From Escherichia coli (GTDB lineage: Bacteria; Pseudomonadota; Gammaproteobacteria; Enterobacterales; Enterobacteriaceae), in assembly GCF_001677475.2 (NCBI RefSeq), contig NZ_CP015229.1: 64,000 nucleotides of DNA. The stretch is one strand, 5' to 3'. The notes beneath the pieces are model-generated. The model did no database searches. It was given only the letters and a program-made list of their open reading frames with translations, and was not told the DNA's origin. Positions within the stretch are counted from its first letter, which is position 1, and the number at the start of each line of letters is the position of its first letter. A program made the position numbers and the translations under genes. Below are positions 1-56,123 of this stretch, one piece after another.

Positions 1-1256
1 GGACGTCCGGCTGAATTAGGCGAGATGATCGGCGATTTTCTTCATTTGCTGGCGGATGGCGCGTTCTTTTCCGGGACTATTCCCCCGTGGCTGGCAGAAG
101 AAAATACGATCGCCAATATTCAGGGATTGATTGAGGAGCAGCGCAACGCGACGGGCATCGTGCCGGGGAGTCGCCATCTGGTCCTCGAGCGGTGCCGTGA
201 TGAAATTGGCGACTGGCGTATTATTTTGCACTCTCCCTATGGAAGACGGGTGCATGAACCCTGGGCGCTGGCGATTGCCGGGCGAATACATGCCCTATGG
301 GGCGCTGACGCGTCTGTGGTCGCCAGTGATGACGGCATTGTTGCGCGCATTCCTGACACTGATGGTAAATTGCCCGACGCCGCGATTTTTTTGTTTGAAC
401 CAGAAAAGTTGCTGCAAATTGTCCGCGAGGCGGTAGGCAGTTCGGCACTTTTCGCCGCCCGTTTTCGCGAATGCGCCGCGCGGGCATTATTAATGCCGGG
501 GCGCACGCCGGGCCATCGCACCCCGCTTTGGCAACAACGGCTGCGCGCCAGTCAGTTGCTGGAAATCGCTCAGGGATATCCGGATTTTCCGGTCATTCTC
601 GAAACCCTACGCGAATGTCTGCAAGATGTTTATGATCTTCCCGCACTGGAACGTTTGATGCGTCGCCTGAACGGTGGCGAAATTCAAATATCCGATGTAA
701 CGACTACTACGCCCTCGCCTTTCGCCACAAGTTTATTGTTCGGCTATGTCGCGGAATTTATGTACCAGAGCGACGCCCCGCTGGCAGAGCGCCGGGCATC
801 CGTACTGTCGCTGGACAGCGAGTTACTGCGCAATCTACTCGGACAGGTCGATCCGGGGGAATTACTCGACCCGCAGGTCATTCGCCAGGTGGAAGAAGAG
901 TTGCAACGACTGGCTCCTGGCAGAAGAGCGAAAGGTGAAGAAGGATTGTTCGACCTGCTGCGCGAACTGGGGCCAATGACCGTTGAAGACCTGGCGCAAC
1001 GGCATACAGGCAGCAGTGAAGAGATTACGTCGTATCTGGAAAATCTTCTTGCAGTAAAACGAATCTTCCCGACGATGATTAGCGGGCAGGAGCGTCTTGC
1101 CTGTATGGATGATGCCGCCAGGCTGCGCGATGCCCTCGGCGTACGACTACCAGAGTCACTGCCAGAGATTTATTTGCACCGAGTCAGTTACCCGCTTCGC
1201 GACCTCTTTCTGCGCTATCTCCGGGCTCATGCTCTGGTCACGTCTGAACAACTGGC
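1..1256 (+). pseudogene. lhr: lhr (ATP-dependent helicase Lhr), internal segment; 5' end lies upstream of the window, 3' side interrupted by an IS insertion
   Basis: Frame-1 ORF is continuous from position 1; the translation continues seamlessly into the 3667..5159 segment once the IS and one repeat copy are removed. After 1256 the frame runs into IS sequence and stops at 1431. Confidence 0.8.
1250..1256. repeat. Target-site duplication, left copy (AACTGGC; possibly 8 bp AACTGGCT)
   Basis: Identical AACTGGC(T) is found directly outside both ends of the element (1250-1256/7 and 3667-3673/4). Confidence 0.7.
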
Positions 1257-1304
1257 TATTAGACGTCAACTAGTTTTGCCGACTCGCGCCAACTATACTG
1301 GCCG
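1257..1304. repeat. Terminal inverted repeat of the IS (istB-proximal end)
   Basis: TATTAGACGTCAAC...CGCGCCAACTATACTGGCCG matches the reverse complement of 3618..3666 (TATGAGACGACAA...GGCGCCGATTATTCTGGCCGG), with shared motifs TAT.AGACG.CAA and GCGCC.A.TAT.CTGGCCG. Confidence 0.6.
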
Positions 1305-1321
1305 CACCCTTCAGGGCGACA

Positions 1322-2077
1322 TCAAGTCGCGCTTGTTACTGCCTTCGCTGTCTTTTTCCTGTAGCTTTCCCCTTTCAGTTCGAACATATATCCGTGATGG
1401 ATCAGCCTGTCTGCCGCAGCCACCGCCATAGTCTCATCCACGAAGATGCTGCCCCACATGCTGAACGGATGGTTACTGGTTATCACCAGGCTCCCACGTT
1501 CATAGCGATGCGCTATTAACTCGAACAGCACACCCGTTTCGGCACTATCGCGTTTGACATAGCCAAGATCATCCACCACTATCACCCGGTAGCGATCCAG
1601 TTTCAGTAGCAGCTCATTCAGTTTCAACTGAGCTCTGGCTTTACGTAGTTCCTGCAACAGCTCTCCTGCGCTGTAGAACCGGGCCCGGTAGCCCTGACCT
1701 ACTACGCCATCCACGATCGCTGCCGCCAGATGGCTTTTCCCCAACCCGCTGGCTCCGAACAGCAGAACGTTTTCTCCTGCATCAACCCAGTCTGTCGTTT
1801 CACAGAGTTGCCGGAACTGAGCTCCATTCAGTTCCGGCACCTGACTGAAGTCGTATTCGCTCAGCGTTTTGGCAACTGGCAACCGGGCCTCCTTTTTATA
1901 ACGACGCAGTTTTTCACTCTCGCGCCACAGGAGTTCTTCATTGCATAGCGTCAGAAGATAGCGCGATGGTGTCCAGCCTTCTGCCAGCGCTCGTTTTTCC
2001 AGAGCGTGCCATTCAGCTCCAACTCGTGTCAGGCGTAGTTTACGCAGGCTATGTTCAAGGTGATGGATATTGCTCAC
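1322..2077 (-). CDS. istB: IstB-like ATP-binding transposition helper protein (IS21 family)
   Basis: 251 aa ORF with Walker A motif GASGLGKSH and Walker B VIVVDDLGY; start overlaps the istA stop. Confidence 0.9.
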   Translation of the reverse strand: MSNIHHLEHSLRKLRLTRVGAEWHALEKRALAEGWTPSRYLLTLCNEELLWRESEKLRRYKKEARLPVAKTLSEYDFSQVPELNGAQFRQLCETTDWVDAGENVLLFGASGLGKSHLAAAIVDGVVGQGYRARFYSAGELLQELRKARAQLKLNELLLKLDRYRVIVVDDLGYVKRDSAETGVLFELIAHRYERGSLVITSNHPFSMWGSIFVDETMAVAAADRLIHHGYMFELKGESYRKKTAKAVTSAT

Positions 2078-3573
2078 TGCGAACCTCCCTTGCCACGCAG
2101 TAGTTGCTCATAACTGCTCAGGTTATGCTGTATCACATTGACTACCGGCAACGCCTTTTCTTTTATACCCAGGAAGCGCATCAGCCGGTGCAGATCCACG
2201 TTTCCCGGGGTATTCAGCATCTGCTCCATACCTTTTGCCACGACTGAGATATCGTCGTATCCTGCAGCCAGTTTCAGGGCATGTACCATCAGCCTTCCTG
2301 CCATATCGGGCTCCAGATGATTACATAAGCGACGCCACAGCCTCCGCCATTCATCGTCCGGCAGGATGTCATTTCTCAGCGTTGCATGGCAGAACGCACC
2401 GGGCTTTTTTGCCAGACTGTCGATCACATGTCGGAAGTCGATACGACGGGCCCGCGTCTTCCCTTTTTCTGGTCTGACGCGAGGGCAGCTCATGACCTCG
2501 CTGCTGCCAACGTAACAGCTCAGACGATCGTCCCATAACCTGACCCGTAACAGTTGACCTACAAGCCGGGAAGGTACGCTGTAGACGACGTGCTTCACAT
2601 TGATGGTACTGCTGCGACTAACCCTCACAGTCAGCTCATCATAGTCAGCACTGCGACGAAGCGGCAGCGGTTTCAGATGAAGACGTTCTTCCTTGACCAG
2701 ATCCTGATTGTTACGGTTGTGCCGCATAACCTGCTGAGTGATGAAGGCCTGATATTCTTCTATGGTGCTGAAGTCGTTACTGCCCCGCAGTATCAGCGCC
2801 TGACAGATACGCCTTTTCAGATGTCCGTGGGCACTTTCAACCGAGCCATTTTCGTGGCCCCGACCGGCATTATTGTGTACGCCCTGCATTCCGTAGTGCT
2901 GACAGAGAGTAGCATAACGCTCAGTCAGCTCGCGGCGTCCATCTTCGCCCTGTTGTTTCCATGCTGCCCTCAGGCTGTCCGTTTTATGTTCTACCGGCAC
3001 TCCGCCCAGTTGTCCGAGGGCTTCCTGCAGGCCTTCAGCCAGAGCAGAGAAGCTCTCACCACCCAGAACAACCCGCATCCAGCTCCAGTGGCTCCATTCC
3101 AGACGGAAGTGATACAACTTATGCGCCAACAACTTACCGGCGATGGTGACAACTACACCTTTCAGTTCAGTAAAGTCCGACAGGCCTCGCAGGCCGGGCT
3201 GATGTTGCTGGCGGAACATGACCTCCTGCTCTGTACCATACTGTAGTTTCCATTCGCGAACCCGCCGTTGCATTGTTCTTCGAAGGCTGTTGGGGTACTG
3301 GCCGGGATATTTATCCTGTAGCATCTCCAGTAGAGTTGTTGGTGTCAGAGCCGGCCTCTCTTTCAACAGAGGAACAAGCATGCTGTCCCACACAGCTTCC
3401 AGAGGATCTTTGCGTGTGCGCCAGTGCCGAACACTGTTTTTTGCCCACTCTCCTTTTTCGATCCGACGACCAGAACGGACTGAGATACCAGCCTTCATGG
3501 CCGAGATATGCTGAGTTATACCTTTCTTACGCTGAGTCATATAGTAACTGACCTGAGAAGTATTGAGCGTCAC
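2074..3573 (-). CDS. istA: IstA transposase (IS21 family), GTG start
   Basis: 499 aa ORF with N-terminal helix-turn-helix-like region and DDE-type integrase-like core; the istA-istB tandem is diagnostic for IS21-family elements. Confidence 0.9.
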   Translation of the reverse strand: MTLNTSQVSYYMTQRKKGITQHISAMKAGISVRSGRRIEKGEWAKNSVRHWRTRKDPLEAVWDSMLVPLLKERPALTPTTLLEMLQDKYPGQYPNSLRRTMQRRVREWKLQYGTEQEVMFRQQHQPGLRGLSDFTELKGVVVTIAGKLLAHKLYHFRLEWSHWSWMRVVLGGESFSALAEGLQEALGQLGGVPVEHKTDSLRAAWKQQGEDGRRELTERYATLCQHYGMQGVHNNAGRGHENGSVESAHGHLKRRICQALILRGSNDFSTIEEYQAFITQQVMRHNRNNQDLVKEERLHLKPLPLRRSADYDELTVRVSRSSTINVKHVVYSVPSRLVGQLLRVRLWDDRLSCYVGSSEVMSCPRVRPEKGKTRARRIDFRHVIDSLAKKPGAFCHATLRNDILPDDEWRRLWRRLCNHLEPDMAGRLMVHALKLAAGYDDISVVAKGMEQMLNTPGNVDLHRLMRFLGIKEKALPVVNVIQHNLSSYEQLLRGKGGSQ

Positions 3574-3617
3574 GCCATTTCCTGTTGGATCATGTAAATG
3601 ACACTCAGGTTACAAAA

Positions 3618-3666
3618 CCGGCCAGAATAATCGGCGCCAGGCGGACTGAGTTATTGTCGTCTCATA
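3618..3666. repeat. Terminal inverted repeat of the IS (istA-proximal end)
   Basis: Reverse complement aligns with 1257..1304. Confidence 0.6.
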
Positions 3667-3673
3667 AACTGGC
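3667..3673. repeat. Target-site duplication, right copy (AACTGGC)
   Basis: Direct repeat of 1250..1256 immediately after the IS end. Confidence 0.7.
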
Positions 3674-5159
3674 TCATGAGTTTAGTCTCGGTATTGCCAT
3701 TGTCGAAGAGCAACTTCAGCAACTGCGCGAACAAGGGCTGGTGATGAATCTGCAACAAGACATCTGGGTGAGCGATGAAGTATTTCGTCGTCTGCGTTTG
3801 CGCTCGCTGCATGCCGCCAGAGAAGCGACGCGTCCCGTTGCGGCCACGACCTATGCGCGATTGCTGCTGGAACGTCAGGGCGTATTACCCGCCACCGATG
3901 GTAGCCCGGCACTCTTTGCCTCAACATCGCCAGGCGTTTATGAGGGCGTGGATGGCGTGATGCGGGTGATCGAACAGCTTGCTGGCGTTGGTTTACCCGC
4001 CTCACTCTGGGAAAGCCAGATCCTGCCTGCCCGCGTACGCGACTATTCGCCAGAAATGCTCGATGAATTACTGGCAACCGGTGCGGTTATCTGGTCGGGG
4101 CAAAAAAAGCTGGGTGAAGATGACGGTCTGGTGGCACTGCATCTACAGGAATATGCCGCAGAATCGTTCACTCCCGCCGAAGCAGATCAGGCGAATCGTT
4201 CGGCGCTGCAGCAAGCGATAATCGCTGTTCTGGCTGACGGAGGAGCCTGGTTTGCACAACAAATCAGCCAACGGATACGCGATAAAATCGGCGAATCGGT
4301 TGATCCCTCGGCTCTGCAAGAGGCGTTATGGGCGCTGGTCTGGCAAGGCGTCATTACCAGCGACATTTGGGCACCGTTACGCGCCCTCACCCGTAGCAGT
4401 TTCAACGCACGCACCTCAACTCGCCGCAGTCACCGGACTCGTCGTGGGCGTCCTGTCTATGCACAACCCGTCTCGCCGCGGGTATTTTACAACACACCAA
4501 ATCTGGCTGGACGCTGGTCGTTATTGCAGGTGGAGCCACTAAACGATACCGAAAGGATGCTGGCGCTGGCGGAAAATATGCTCGACCGCTACGGCATCAT
4601 CAGTCGTCAGGCGGTGATAGCCGAAAATATCCCTGGTGGGTTTCCATCGATGCAAACGCTTTGTCGAAGTATGGAAGACTCCGGGCGAATTATGCGAGGT
4701 CGTTTTGTAGAAGGTCTGGGTGGCGCGCAATTCGCTGAACGTCTGACTATTGACCGATTGCGCGATCTGGCGACACAAGCCACGCAAACGCGCCACTATA
4801 CACCAGTGGCGCTCTCTGCCAACGATCCGGCTAATGCATGGGGAAATCTTCTGCCCTGGCCTGCACATCCGGCAACGCTGATACCAACGCGTCGGGCGGG
4901 TGCGCTGGTGGTCGTTTCTGGCGGCAAATTGTTACTCTATCTGGCGCAAGGTGGCAAAAAAATGCTGGTCTGGCAGGAAAAAGAGGAATTACTCGCTCCA
5001 GAGATTTTCCACGCGCTGACTACCGCACTGCGTCGCGAACCACGGCTGCGCTTTACGCTAACAGAAGTGAATGACCTACCGGTCCGGCAAACGCCGATGT
5101 TTACGCTGCTGCGTGAGGCGGGATTTTCAAGTTCGCCACAAGGGCTGGATTGGGGATAG
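3667..5159 (+). pseudogene. lhr: lhr, 3' segment (C-terminal roughly 497 codons) downstream of the IS insertion
   Basis: In-frame continuation of Lhr; the track ORF 3585..5159 begins at a TTG inside the IS end, so there is no native start codon. Confidence 0.8.
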
Positions 5160-5166
5160 AGAAAGG

Positions 5167-5196
5167 ACTGACGGATGCCCGTTCGCATCCGTCAGT
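5167..5196. terminator. Perfect 12-bp-stem hairpin between convergent lhr and grxD (putative bidirectional terminator)
   Basis: ACTGACGGATGC-ccgttc-GCATCCGTCAGT lies between the lhr stop (5159) and the grxD stop (5210); no strong U-tract on either side. Confidence 0.45.
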
Positions 5197-5209
5197 ATTG
5201 CAGGACGGA

Positions 5210-5557
5210 TTATTCAGCGTCCGGCTCTTCAGACTTGTATTTAGCGGCAGTTTCTTTGATCAGCTGCTGCAGTTCGCCACGCTGATACATTTCGATCACG
5301 ATATCACAACCGCCGACCAGCTCGCCGTCAACCCACAGTTGCGGGAAGGTCGGCCAGTTAGCATATTTCGGCAGTTCCGCACGAATGTCCGGATTCTGCA
5401 GGATATCAACATAGGCAAAACGTTCGCCACATGCGGCAAGCGCCTGGACTGCCTGGGCAGAGAAACCGCAGCTCGGCAGTTTCGGTGAACCTTTCATGTA
5501 CAGCAGGATCGGGTTTTCAGCAATCTGGCGTTGGATTTTTTCGATAGTGGTGCTCAT
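5210..5557 (-). CDS. grxD: Monothiol glutaredoxin Grx4
   Basis: 115 aa with CGFS active-site motif (PSCGFS); GAGGAA ribosome-binding site upstream. Confidence 0.95.
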   Translation of the reverse strand: MSTTIEKIQRQIAENPILLYMKGSPKLPSCGFSAQAVQALAACGERFAYVDILQNPDIRAELPKYANWPTFPQLWVDGELVGGCDIVIEMYQRGELQQLIKETAAKYKSEEPDAE

Positions 5558-8741: not shown

Positions 8742-8906
8742 GCCTTATCTCCACCTCTTCGCGTCATTACGCGATATTCATTAAAGTGGCGAAAGCATGA
8801 CAGCAATCACAAAAAAATGAAAATAACAAAAAGAGAAAACACTTTTGCCATTTTGCTAACAAACAGGAAAGAGAGGCGAGGGAGAACGCGCTCCCTCGAG
8901 AGGAAA

Positions 8907-8996
8907 TCAGTGCAGCGCGGCAGTCAAACCCACGGCCACGATCAAACCGAGGACGATAATCGTTGTTACCAGTGAAAATTTAAGGTCGGTGCTCAT
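8907..8996 (-). CDS. ynhF: Small membrane protein YnhF (29 aa)
   Basis: ATG...TGA encoding MSTDLKFSLVTTIIVLGLIVAVGLTAALH, a single transmembrane helix; not present in the supplied ORF track because it is too short. Confidence 0.75.
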   Translation of the reverse strand: MSTDLKFSLVTTIIVLGLIVAVGLTAALH

Positions 8997-9234
8997 CAAG
9001 TTTTCTCCTTTTTTATTACCACACAAAAAGTGATATTACGCATTTTTACACACTGTGATGAAAAAATCTCCCGTCATTTATAATGATAAGTGTTTTTACC
9101 ACTTCCCCTTTTCGTCAAGATCGGCCAAAATTCCACGCTTACACTATTTGCGTACTGGCCATTGACCCCTTCCTGACGCTCCGTGTCGTTTTTCCGGCGT
9201 ACCGCAACACTTTTGTTGTGCGTAAGGTGTGTAA

Positions 9235-9250
9235 AGGCAAACGTTTACCT
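9235..9250. promoter_or_regulatory. PurR operator (PUR box) in the purR leader
   Basis: AGGCAAACGTTTACCT matches the 16-bp PUR box palindrome (ACGCAAACGTTTGCGT type). Confidence 0.7.
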
Positions 9251-9294
9251 TGCGATTTTGCAGGAGCTGAAGTTAGGGTCTGGAGTGAAATGGA

Positions 9295-22528: not shown

Positions 22529-23188
22529 TCAGGGGTTCTGAAACTGCTCTACCTCGAACCATTCGCATAAGCCATACGCCTTGCCATAGGTCATAAATCG
22601 CTCGCTAAACAAGTACAACACCGCCGTCGATGACTCCACCTGCCGTATATCAGCATATTCAGGTGCAATATCCATCGCGGCGATCGCGGCTTCGATCTGC
22701 GCTTCCTGGAAGTAATATGGCGCTTGCAACAGCATGGCGACTTTGTAAGGACGAGGATACGTCTGGCACTCAAAACGAACGGCGTGTGCAATGGCGCGAC
22801 AAATGTCCTGCTCCACAACTTGCAAAGACATCGCCGCGTAGTTTTCACTCATGGCCTGCGTTGAGTAATAGTAATCATCCTGGCTTCCCGTCATACACGC
22901 GATATCCGCGTAGTCTCCGTTCTGCTTAATGTTTTCCAGCAAAACTGACAGTTCCTCTTCTGCAACCGAATAGGGCGGCGAGAGAAACACGGCGCGCGCC
23001 ACCAGCTGCCCAGCCGCAGAATGCTGGCGAATGAACTCTGCTAGGATTTCAGCAGGTTCTTGTTCTGTGATGTCTTCACTTACCGTATCAACGGGGTGAC
23101 GCATCCCCTGCAACCATTGCCGCTTCGCCTCGTCAATTTCGCTGACTTCCGCTAACGGCAAGACATCCTGATGGTTCATCTCACCCAT
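22529..23188 (-). CDS. ydhW: YdhW, uncharacterised protein
   Basis: About 215-219 aa ORF; start ambiguous between the first and fourth codon. Confidence 0.85.
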   Translation of the reverse strand: MGEMNHQDVLPLAEVSEIDEAKRQWLQGMRHPVDTVSEDITEQEPAEILAEFIRQHSAAGQLVARAVFLSPPYSVAEEELSVLLENIKQNGDYADIACMTGSQDDYYYSTQAMSENYAAMSLQVVEQDICRAIAHAVRFECQTYPRPYKVAMLLQAPYYFQEAQIEAAIAAMDIAPEYADIRQVESSTAVLYLFSERFMTYGKAYGLCEWFEVEQFQNP

Positions 23189-36117: not shown

Positions 36118-36190
36118 AAAGTGCAGCGTTCAGAAATAAGAAAACCCTTAAGTCTGTGCGACACAGGCTTAAGGGTTTCTACCCCATCCG
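36118..36190 (-). ncRNA. rydB: Candidate RydB small RNA (position inferred from the terminator hairpin and the known sufA-rydB-ydiH order)
   Basis: On the minus strand, AAACCCTTAAGCCTGTGTCGCACAGACTTAAGGGTTT is followed by TCTTATTTCT (hairpin plus U-rich tail). The sRNA sequence itself was not recalled, so the boundaries are approximate. Confidence 0.35.
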
Positions 36191-36400
36191 GCGCTTATCT
36201 CCGGCACTCTCAGTGGCTTAGCTCTTGAAGGGGCGATAAGAATAATCTCATAAAGCTAACCCGCCGTTTTAACACAAACTGCGATTAGTATTATTTTTGA
36301 ACAATATCAGGCGGGTAGATAAGCAGTATTAAGAAGGCCATCGAACCTGGACGGAGATTAATCCAGGTCGATATGGCGAACTTGCGGCATTAAGTCAGGA

Positions 36401-41838: not shown

Positions 41839-41944
41839 ACGGTTATAAATCAACATATTGATTTATAAGCATGGAAATCCCCTGAGTGAAACAACGAATT
41901 GCTGTGTGTAGTCTTTGCCCATCTCCCACGATGGGCTTTTTTTT
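41839..41944 (+). ncRNA. rprA: RprA small RNA (activator of rpoS translation)
   Basis: Matches the remembered RprA sequence ACGGTTATAAATCAACATATTGATTTATAAGCATGGAAATCCCCTGAGTG... ending in the terminator CCCATCTCCCACGATGGGCTTTTTTT. Confidence 0.9.
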
Positions 41945-42081
41945 AACATTTTTCCGCTTCGCTACCTCGCCCCTCACTCTTTCCAATAATGTTGCACAAG
42001 ATACTGTGACTCTCTTCAAGCCGTCAGCAGGCTGATAATGTTATTTATATTTTATTGTTTATTTCATGCAGCCATTACACG

Positions 42082-54446: not shown

Positions 54447-56123
54447 ATGCATCCCACAGGCCCGCATCTCGGGCCTGATGTTCTGTTTCAAGAGTCCAAA
54501 ATGAAAGTGACATTAACGTTTAACGAACAACGTCGTGCGGCGTATCGTCAGCAAGGGCTATGGGGCGATGCTTCGCTGGCCGATTACTGGCAGCAGACCG
54601 CTCGTGCGATGCCTGACAAAATTGCCGTGGTCGATAATCATGGAGCATCGTACACCTATAGCGCGCTCGATCACGCCGCGAGCTGTCTGGCAAACTGGAT
54701 GTTAGCGAAGGGGATTGAATCAGGCGATCGCATCGCATTTCAACTGCCAGGCTGGTGTGAATTTACCGTTATCTATCTTGCCTGCCTGAAAACCGGTGCG
54801 GTTTCCGTACCGCTGTTGCCTTCCTGGCGGGAAGCAGAACTGGTATGGGTACTCAATAAGTGTCAGGCAAAAATGTTCTTTGCACCGACGTTGTTTAAAC
54901 AAACGCGTCCGGTAGATTTAATCCTGCCGCTGCAAAATCAGCTTCCACAACTACAACAAATTGTCGGCGTGGACAAACTGGCTCCCGCCACCTCTGCTCT
55001 CTCATTAAGTCAGATTATCGCCGACAATACTCCTCTGACCACGGCGATAACGGTCCACGGCGATGAATTAGCCGCGGTGCTGTTTACCTCCGGAACCGAG
55101 GGTCTGCCAAAGGGCGTGATGCTAACGCATAACAATATTCTCGCCAGTGAGCGGGCTTATTGCGCGCGGCTGAATCTGACCTGGCAGGATGTCTTTATGA
55201 TGCCTGCGCCACTTGGTCACGCAACGGGCTTTCTGCATGGCGTAACAGCACCATTTTTAATTGGTGCTCGCAGCGTGTTGTTAGATATTTTCACTCCTGA
55301 TGCGTGTCTCGCGCTGCTTGAGCAGCAGCGTTGCACCTGTATGCTCGGCGCAACGCCGTTTGTCTATGATCTTTTGAATTTACTGGAGAAACAACCCGCA
55401 GACCTTTCAGCGCTGCGCTTCTTTCTTTGCGGCGGGACCACAATCCCCAAAAAAGTGGCGCGTGAATGCCAGCAGCGCGGCATTAAATTATTAAGTGTTT
55501 ATGGTTCCACAGAAAGTTCGCCGCATGCGGTGGTGAATCTCGATGATCCTTTGTCGCGCTTTATGCACACCGATGGTTACGCTGCCGCAGGTGTAGAGAT
55601 TAAAGTGGTCGATGACGCACGCAAGACCTTACCGCCAGGTTGCGAAGGTGAAGAAGCCTCGCGTGGCCCCAATGTGTTTATGGGGTATTTTGATGAACCT
55701 GAATTAACTGCCCGTGCGCTGGATGAAGAAGGCTGGTATTACAGCGGCGATCTCTGCCGTATGGATGAGGCTGGCTATATAAAAATTACCGGACGCAAAA
55801 AAGATATTATTGTCCGCGGCGGCGAAAATATTAGCAGCCGTGAAGTGGAAGATATTTTATTGCAGCATCCTAAAATTCACGATGCCTGTGTGGTTGCAAT
55901 GCCCGATGAACGTTTAGGTGAACGATCATGCGCTTATGTCGTGCTGAAAGCACCGCATCATTCATTATCGCTGGAAGAGGTGGTGGCTTTTTTTAGCCGT
56001 AAACGGGTCGCAAAATATAAATATCCTGAACTTATCGTGGTAATCGAAAAACTACCGCGCACTGCCTCAGGTAAAATACAAAAGTTTTTGTTAAGAAAAG
56101 ATATTATGCGGCGGTTAACTTAG
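54447..56123 (+). CDS. fadK: Short/medium-chain acyl-CoA synthetase FadK (YdiD); start uncertain (54447 or 54501)
   Basis: AMP-binding signature (LFTSGTEGLPKGV) and C-terminal lysine motif. Confidence 0.9.
   Translation: MHPTGPHLGPDVLFQESKMKVTLTFNEQRRAAYRQQGLWGDASLADYWQQTARAMPDKIAVVDNHGASYTYSALDHAASCLANWMLAKGIESGDRIAFQLPGWCEFTVIYLACLKTGAVSVPLLPSWREAELVWVLNKCQAKMFFAPTLFKQTRPVDLILPLQNQLPQLQQIVGVDKLAPATSALSLSQIIADNTPLTTAITVHGDELAAVLFTSGTEGLPKGVMLTHNNILASERAYCARLNLTWQDVFMMPAPLGHATGFLHGVTAPFLIGARSVLLDIFTPDACLALLEQQRCTCMLGATPFVYDLLNLLEKQPADLSALRFFLCGGTTIPKKVARECQQRGIKLLSVYGSTESSPHAVVNLDDPLSRFMHTDGYAAAGVEIKVVDDARKTLPPGCEGEEASRGPNVFMGYFDEPELTARALDEEGWYYSGDLCRMDEAGYIKITGRKKDIIVRGGENISSREVEDILLQHPKIHDACVVAMPDERLGERSCAYVVLKAPHHSLSLEEVVAFFSRKRVAKYKYPELIVVIEKLPRTASGKIQKFLLRKDIMRRLT

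Follow-up and report, generated by a model that had tools for sequence, protein, structure and literature searches.

What becomes of lhr, the gene for the E. coli helicase and uracil-DNA glycosylase Lhr, when an insertion sequence (IS) splits it late in the reading frame, and could either part still be made and used? The question is raised by the first 5,159 nucleotides of a 64,000-nucleotide stretch of Escherichia coli contig NZ_CP015229.1 (assembly GCF_001677475.2), hereafter the window, where lhr codons 626-1538 are interrupted by one copy of the IS21-family element ISEc10. The reading favoured here, at a probability of about 0.88, is an ISEc10-disrupted lhr, that is an ordinary insertion pseudogene from which full-length Lhr has been lost.

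Structure of the interrupted lhr gene

The window opens with the first base of lhr codon 626 in the numbering of E. coli 042, whose gene has 1538 codons. Window positions 1-1257 matched 042 lhr at 98.0% identity without gaps, and the ungapped match restarted at 3667 and continued past the lhr stop codon (5157-5159) into grxD. The features of the interrupted region are as follows.

1..1256, plus strand: lhr 5' fragment, codons 626-1044 (042 alignment, PRK09751, Pfam)
1250..1256, no strand: target duplication AACTGGC, left copy (042 positions 5250-5256 of locus L001, found on both sides of the IS)
1257..3666, minus strand: ISEc10 (IS21 family), complete (identity to copies annotated at NCBI as IS21-like element ISEc10)
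1258..1431, plus strand: 57-codon tail and TAG (open reading frame 25..1431; partly antisense to the 3' end of istB)
1322..2077, minus strand: istB, IS21 helper AAA+ ATPase, 251 amino acids, full length (NF038214)
2074..3573, minus strand: istA, IS21-family transposase, 499 amino acids, GTG start, full length (NF033546)
3667..3673, no strand: target duplication AACTGGC, right copy (042 comparison and IS termini)
3667..5159, plus strand: lhr 3' fragment, codons 1043-1538, TAG stop at 5157-5159 (042 alignment, PRK09751, Pfam, 7LHL)

ISEc10 splits lhr after codon 1044, and this codon (GCT) is preserved because the first IS base, T 1257, equals the native base. Downstream of the IS, 496 native codons (1043-1538) are complete. 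A preliminary description of this DNA had recognized an IS insertion that gives the N-terminal part of Lhr an IS-encoded tail and leaves the C-terminal part without a native start, which was borne out. It had set the break at about codon 1040 and counted roughly 497 codons downstream, figures that were near the mark and are corrected here.

Both pieces were collinear with the intact lhr genes of 18 other E. coli, with no indel and no stop; the part of the 5' fragment in the window (codons 626-1044) has no frameshift or internal stop, and neither fragment carries a secondary lesion. Against the 1538-position NCBIfam model PRK09751 the upstream piece matched positions 626-1048 with 915 bits and the downstream piece positions 1043-1538 with 1028 bits, neither reaching the whole-protein cut-off of 1496 bits. 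Judged by its sequence, the window's lhr is a disrupted gene copy and not a functional member of the Lhr family.

The inserted element

The insert (1257-3666, 2410 bp, minus orientation) is complete and was 99.9% identical to the annotated ISEc10 of E. coli OkiPb01695, with 3 mismatches and no gaps, and 99.8% identical to the RM9088 copy; across its 2410 bp it differed from four annotated ISEc10 copies at 3 to 24 positions. Termini were set by comparing four copies with different flanks and read TATTAGACG... and ...CGTCTCATA in the window, the terminus pair being also given as TATTAGACG and TATGAGACG. Structural features of an IS21 element were found. Terminal inverted repeats of 48 nt occupy 1257-1304 and 3619-3666 and are imperfect (71% complementary), and a perfect 7-bp target duplication, AACTGGC, lies at 1250-1256 and 3667-3673. 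Target duplications in the IS21 family range from 4 to 8 bp, and those of the other ISEc10 copies compared were 5, 6 and 7 bp. The genes istA and istB follow one another on the same strand with a 4-bp overlap, and scored 226.4 bits (cut-off 160) with NCBIfam NF033546 and 266.7 bits (cut-off 200) with NF038214, respectively. IstA differed from annotated ISEc10 IstA by 1-4 amino acids and IstB from its annotated counterparts by 0-1; the exact IstA protein was found in prophages and on plasmids, in 145 blocks of public assemblies. With the perfect 7-bp repeat and full-length istA and istB, the insertion is not a chance feature, and with its reading frames and ends intact the copy is apparently active.

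The copies at NZ_AP042570.1 4485091-4487502 and NZ_CP042298.1 1526574-1528984 agreed with that of the window in length, termini and sizes of istA and istB, and the compared copies differed from it only in insertion site: annotated copies sit in pyruvate formate-lyase family, lytic transglycosylase and prophage lysozyme genes, whereas the window copy sits in lhr. The element is multicopy in some E. coli, occupying up to 14 places per genome.

Two promoter-like sequences were noted around the element ends. An outward-pointing -35-like TTGACG (1264-1269, minus strand) lies 7 nt from the istB-side terminus and recalls the junction promoter of tandem IS21; a hybrid antisense promoter built on it was rejected because the adjoining lhr sequence lacks a -10 box at 16-18 nt. 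The other (3679-3706, minus strand; TCGACA, 16 nt, TAAACT, 9/12 matches) is located in the flanking lhr sequence and is directed into the IS, towards istA, and sites of this kind were counted in the region at chance level.

Position of the break relative to the Lhr domains

In the upstream piece Pfam placed DEAD_assoc, the C-domain of the helicase core, at Lhr residues 679-867 and WH2_Lhr at 912-1016, and in the downstream piece WH3_Lhr (about 1113-1206) and WH4_Lhr (1334-1416), so that the pieces show DEAD_assoc followed by the winged-helix modules of the C-terminal domain (CTD) in the order typical of Lhr. The SF2 modules DEAD, Helicase_C and WH1 (residues 1-625) precede the window, which starts at codon 626. 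The downstream piece aligned to residues 1024-1442 of Mycobacterium smegmatis Lhr-CTD (7LHL, E=6e-74) and retains the Lhr C-terminus ...PQGLDWG with the catalytic Asp-1536, the residue on which glycosylase activity depends (PMC10953399).

Published boundaries put the E. coli Lhr core at residues 1-877 (PMC8053096) or 1-897 (PMC10953399), with the CTD continuing to 1538 in either case. By these boundaries, and because DEAD_assoc ends at 867, WH2_Lhr spans 912-1016 and WH3_Lhr lies downstream of 1044, the break is placed after the helicase core and approximately 150-170 residues into the CTD, which agrees with the preliminary description. It would fall within the WH2-WH3 subdomain and upstream of the AlkZ-like subdomain of WH4-WH6 and beta-barrel. 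Set against E. coli Lhr (b1653, 1538 amino acids), the two fragments of the window together cover residues 626-1538 and keep Asp-1536, but in a frame that is broken after codon 1044.

Products expected from the upstream frame

The upstream lhr frame reads 57 codons into the IS (1258-1428), giving the tail IRRQLVLPTRANYTGRTLQGD...PQPPP before the TAG at 1429-1431, exactly as had been claimed and as the list of open reading frames and a run-length count confirm. Runs of at least 57 sense codons arose from 24% of entry points on the IS strand that encodes the tail, and therefore the length of the tail carries no signal. The tail ends in PQPPP directly before the TAG (1414-1431); a polyproline run before a stop can slow translation or termination and is EF-P-dependent.

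We propose that a complete ISEc10 transposed into lhr, the last gene of an rnt-lhr unit, in antisense orientation to lhr, with the transposase IstA and the helper ATPase IstB as the presumed agents and the 7-bp target AACTGGC duplicated in the process. The 042 genome has rnt 92 bp upstream of lhr, in the same orientation, and grxD downstream in convergent orientation; with this convergent neighbour no other gene would be hit by polarity. Because ISEc10 splits lhr after codon 1044, synthesis of the full-length tetrameric helicase-glycosylase is no longer possible. The lhr promoter would give at most a product of 1101 residues, comprising Lhr 1-1044 and 57 unrelated residues, that would hold the helicase core and WH2 but neither the AlkZ-like uracil-DNA glycosylase module nor most of the tetramer interface. 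The 3' fragment, cut off from the promoter, ribosome-binding site and start codon of lhr, would most likely be silent. The event may be recent, as the fragments carry no secondary lesions and the IS matches other copies at 99.9% identity.

What such a product could do can be gauged from published work. The EcoLhr core alone is a monomeric ATPase and translocase, and the CTD builds the homo-oligomer and assists in unwinding duplexes (PMC8053096). In M. smegmatis, Lhr-Core does not complement the deletion, CTD tetramerisation is needed in vivo, and repair in vivo is lost when mutations at the interface disrupt the tetramer (PMC9841417). The residues named there as the main ones of the interface are His1199, Tyr1203, Arg1206, Asp1237, Arg1286, Ser1288, Thr1100 and Asp1366 (PMC9841417), all of them downstream of M. 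smegmatis position about 1022, and the main tetramer-interface residues are on the downstream side of the break. Because of this published core and CTD work on E. coli and M. smegmatis, the 1101-residue product could be a motor in vitro, and would be a monomer that lacks glycosylase and probably does not function in repair. The earlier suggestion that a truncated helicase could still be made is thus biochemically possible, while function in vivo is disfavoured (PMC8053096, PMC9841417).

Possible expression of the 3' fragment

The downstream frame is open from 3567, the preceding in-frame stop being TGA 3564-3566. Three of its candidate starts, all on the plus strand, are listed with their Shine-Dalgarno pairing energies.

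3585..3587, plus strand: TTG, first in-frame start, inside the IS (-2.5 kcal/mol)
3654..3656, plus strand: TTG, second in-frame start inside the IS, before the junction (-5.8 kcal/mol)
3744..3746, plus strand: ATG, first native internal ATG, Lhr Met-1068, which would give 471 amino acids (-4.2 kcal/mol)

Native in-frame starts were also found at GTG 3741, GTG 3957 and ATG 3960 (the last at -6.1 kcal/mol). Pairing at TTG 3585 is weak relative to a background mean of -1.6 kcal/mol, and the real starts in the window mostly pair at -6 to -9 kcal/mol. The preliminary description was right that TTG 3585 is in frame, inside the IS and weakly paired; it is not the only in-frame start, as TTG 3654, GTG 3741, ATG 3744 and others show. 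Six candidate products of the 3' fragment (524, 501, 472, 471, 400 and 399 amino acids) had no exact match among the proteins of public assemblies.

A consensus promoter scan of 1100-3900 returned 2 sites where 2.1 were expected, none of which faces the 3' fragment, and the standard scan found no sigma-70-like site pointing outward on the plus strand at the IS end. An outward promoter at the IS end was rejected as a candidate, a relaxed scan giving only 8-9/12 matches in which the -35 box was poor or the spacer 19 nt long. Transcription from the lhr promoter could reach the 3' fragment only across approximately 2.2 kb of untranslated antisense IS RNA.

Distribution of the insertion and other lhr alleles

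Among 5,426 complete E. coli genomes no record covers at least 80% of window positions 1-5400, and therefore none of them has this insertion. Neither GTDB representative genomes nor JGI metagenomes contained the junction 30-mer. A homology search with a 476-residue Lhr fragment listed proteins of at most 832 amino acids, although the collection searched abounds in full-length Lhr of 1538 amino acids, and the absence of the chimeric 1101-residue product from that list is thus uninformative. MepH and YdhP are common alleles whose exact matches occurred only in unrelated strains with intact lhr. A different broken allele was seen in GCA_048157185.1 (L008 4651-9268), in which a frameshift leaves lhr called as proteins of 1191 and 365 amino acids. 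It too breaks in the CTD with the core-containing part the longer, as in the window, but it is a frameshift and not an IS insertion, and its break is about 150 codons further downstream.

Alternative explanations

That the insertion has produced a functional split, with an N-terminal core helicase and a stand-alone AlkZ-like glycosylase whose activities both survive uncoupled, is unlikely. The C-terminal piece would then be translated from TTG 3654, ATG 3744 or ATG 3960, and internal starts do pair at -4 to -6 kcal/mol. The autonomy of the core as an ATPase and translocase fits this proposal, as does the location of WH4-WH6 and the beta-barrel, which are homologous to the whole of AlkZ, entirely downstream of the break (PMC8053096). 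The E. coli CTD (876-1538) alone is a proficient stand-alone glycosylase in vitro, but it is weaker and binds DNA poorly (PMC10953399). The freedom of both fragments from secondary lesions may also be cited in its favour, although a lack of decay is equally expected if the insertion is recent, which the near identity of the IS to other copies (99.9%) suggests. Against it, no promoter-like site faces the 3' fragment, the untranslated IS RNA between that fragment and the lhr promoter would favour Rho-dependent termination, the break cuts the WH2-WH3 subdomain, and the core alone was inactive in vivo in M. smegmatis (PMC9841417). The split resembles the separate proteins known elsewhere, namely stand-alone Lhr-Core helicases of 800-900 amino acids in bacteria and archaea and the AlkZ/YcaQ glycosylases (PMC8053096). 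It differs from them in being accidental and in cutting through a subdomain; its glycosylase piece has neither promoter nor start, and its core piece bears 57 foreign residues. A natural separation-of-function allele, with a tailed monomeric core and a glycosylase expressed as two separate proteins, is given even less credence.

Selected loss, by which lhr or just its glycosylase and tetramer part was advantageously inactivated in the lineage, is likewise quite improbable. Breakage of lhr elsewhere, such as the frameshift in GCA_048157185.1, and the fragmentary Lhr proteins annotated in E. coli and Shigella would be in keeping with it, but lhr was intact in 18 of the 19 other loci fetched and the insertion was unique among the collections searched, with no recurrence at the site. 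Window-private nonsynonymous to synonymous changes stood at 4:3 downstream and 1:4 upstream (Fisher p=0.29), changes too few to support relaxed or otherwise altered selection on the 3' fragment.

An assembly artefact, in which a multicopy IS (up to 14 places per genome) was misjoined into a gene that is really intact, is extremely improbable. In its favour, the contig of one relative at 99.99-100% identity over 13-20 kb appears, by extrapolation from contig coordinates, long enough to pass the lhr region unbroken. Against it, the perfect 7-bp duplication coincides with the IS termini as defined, the two flanks are directly adjacent in the reference, and a misjoin would not create a target duplication.

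Some observations nevertheless weigh against the insertion pseudogene with loss of Lhr function. The in vitro glycosylase activity of the isolated CTD means that separated parts may keep partial function, and the 3' fragment contains several internal starts with moderate Shine-Dalgarno pairing. The need for the CTD in vivo was shown in M. smegmatis with crosslinkers and not in E. coli, and an E. coli lhr deletion is not mitomycin-sensitive. In addition, lhr codons 1-625 and the promoter lie outside the window.

The insertion pseudogene shows no sign of a new mechanism; it is a known IS in a known gene and an event of a well-understood type, with little significance beyond annotation. The annotation of the source strain should record lhr as a pseudogene that ISEc10 interrupts after codon 1044. 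An E. coli lhr deletion mutant is sensitive to hydrogen peroxide (H2O2) and azidothymidine (AZT) (PMC10953399), and the source strain is predicted to resemble an lhr mutant for functions needing the tetramer or the glycosylase module, with mild AZT and marked H2O2 sensitivity as in E. coli K-12. Provided that the source strain can be obtained, its allele might be used as a naturally occurring truncation to learn whether the Lhr core of E. coli is enough in vivo, although a designed truncation would be cleaner.

The surrounding region and related genomes

The gene order lhr-grxD-mepH-sodB in the window is that of E. coli, and the rest of the 64-kb window was collinear with E. coli 042. It contained no other insertion sequence and, relative to 042, no other disrupted gene save for the loss of the end of fadK, where TAG at 56121-56123 replaces CAG of 042 at codon 541 of 548 and the last 8 residues would be lost. 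Shigella-like genome decay was rejected as a context, because the 64 kb contain a single IS and, lhr aside, no broken gene.

The 5,426 complete genomes reached at best 98.5-98.8% identity to the window, with gene order fully conserved, and the source lineage seems to have no complete genome in that collection. Near-identical drafts were found over 13-20 kb, namely GCA_016125675.1 and SRR15047518 at 99.99% and GCA_016118575.1 at 100%; the loci of these three as compared end 7-15 kb short of lhr. A rare ydhW allele (22532-23179, minus strand), encoding 216 amino acids with 4 extra residues and 94% identical to that of 042, was recorded in no more than 51 blocks of the public assembly index.

Matches to Rfam that exceeded the gathering score were STnc550, two tRNA genes (tRNA-Val in 042), the antisense RNA HPnc0260, rydB and RprA. 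The match positions are given below.

8904-9294, minus strand: Rfam match
17887-18041, plus strand: Rfam match
18006-18168, minus strand: Rfam match
36174-36234, minus strand: Rfam match
41839-41946, plus strand: Rfam match

All of these matches lie where the E. coli gene order predicts them.

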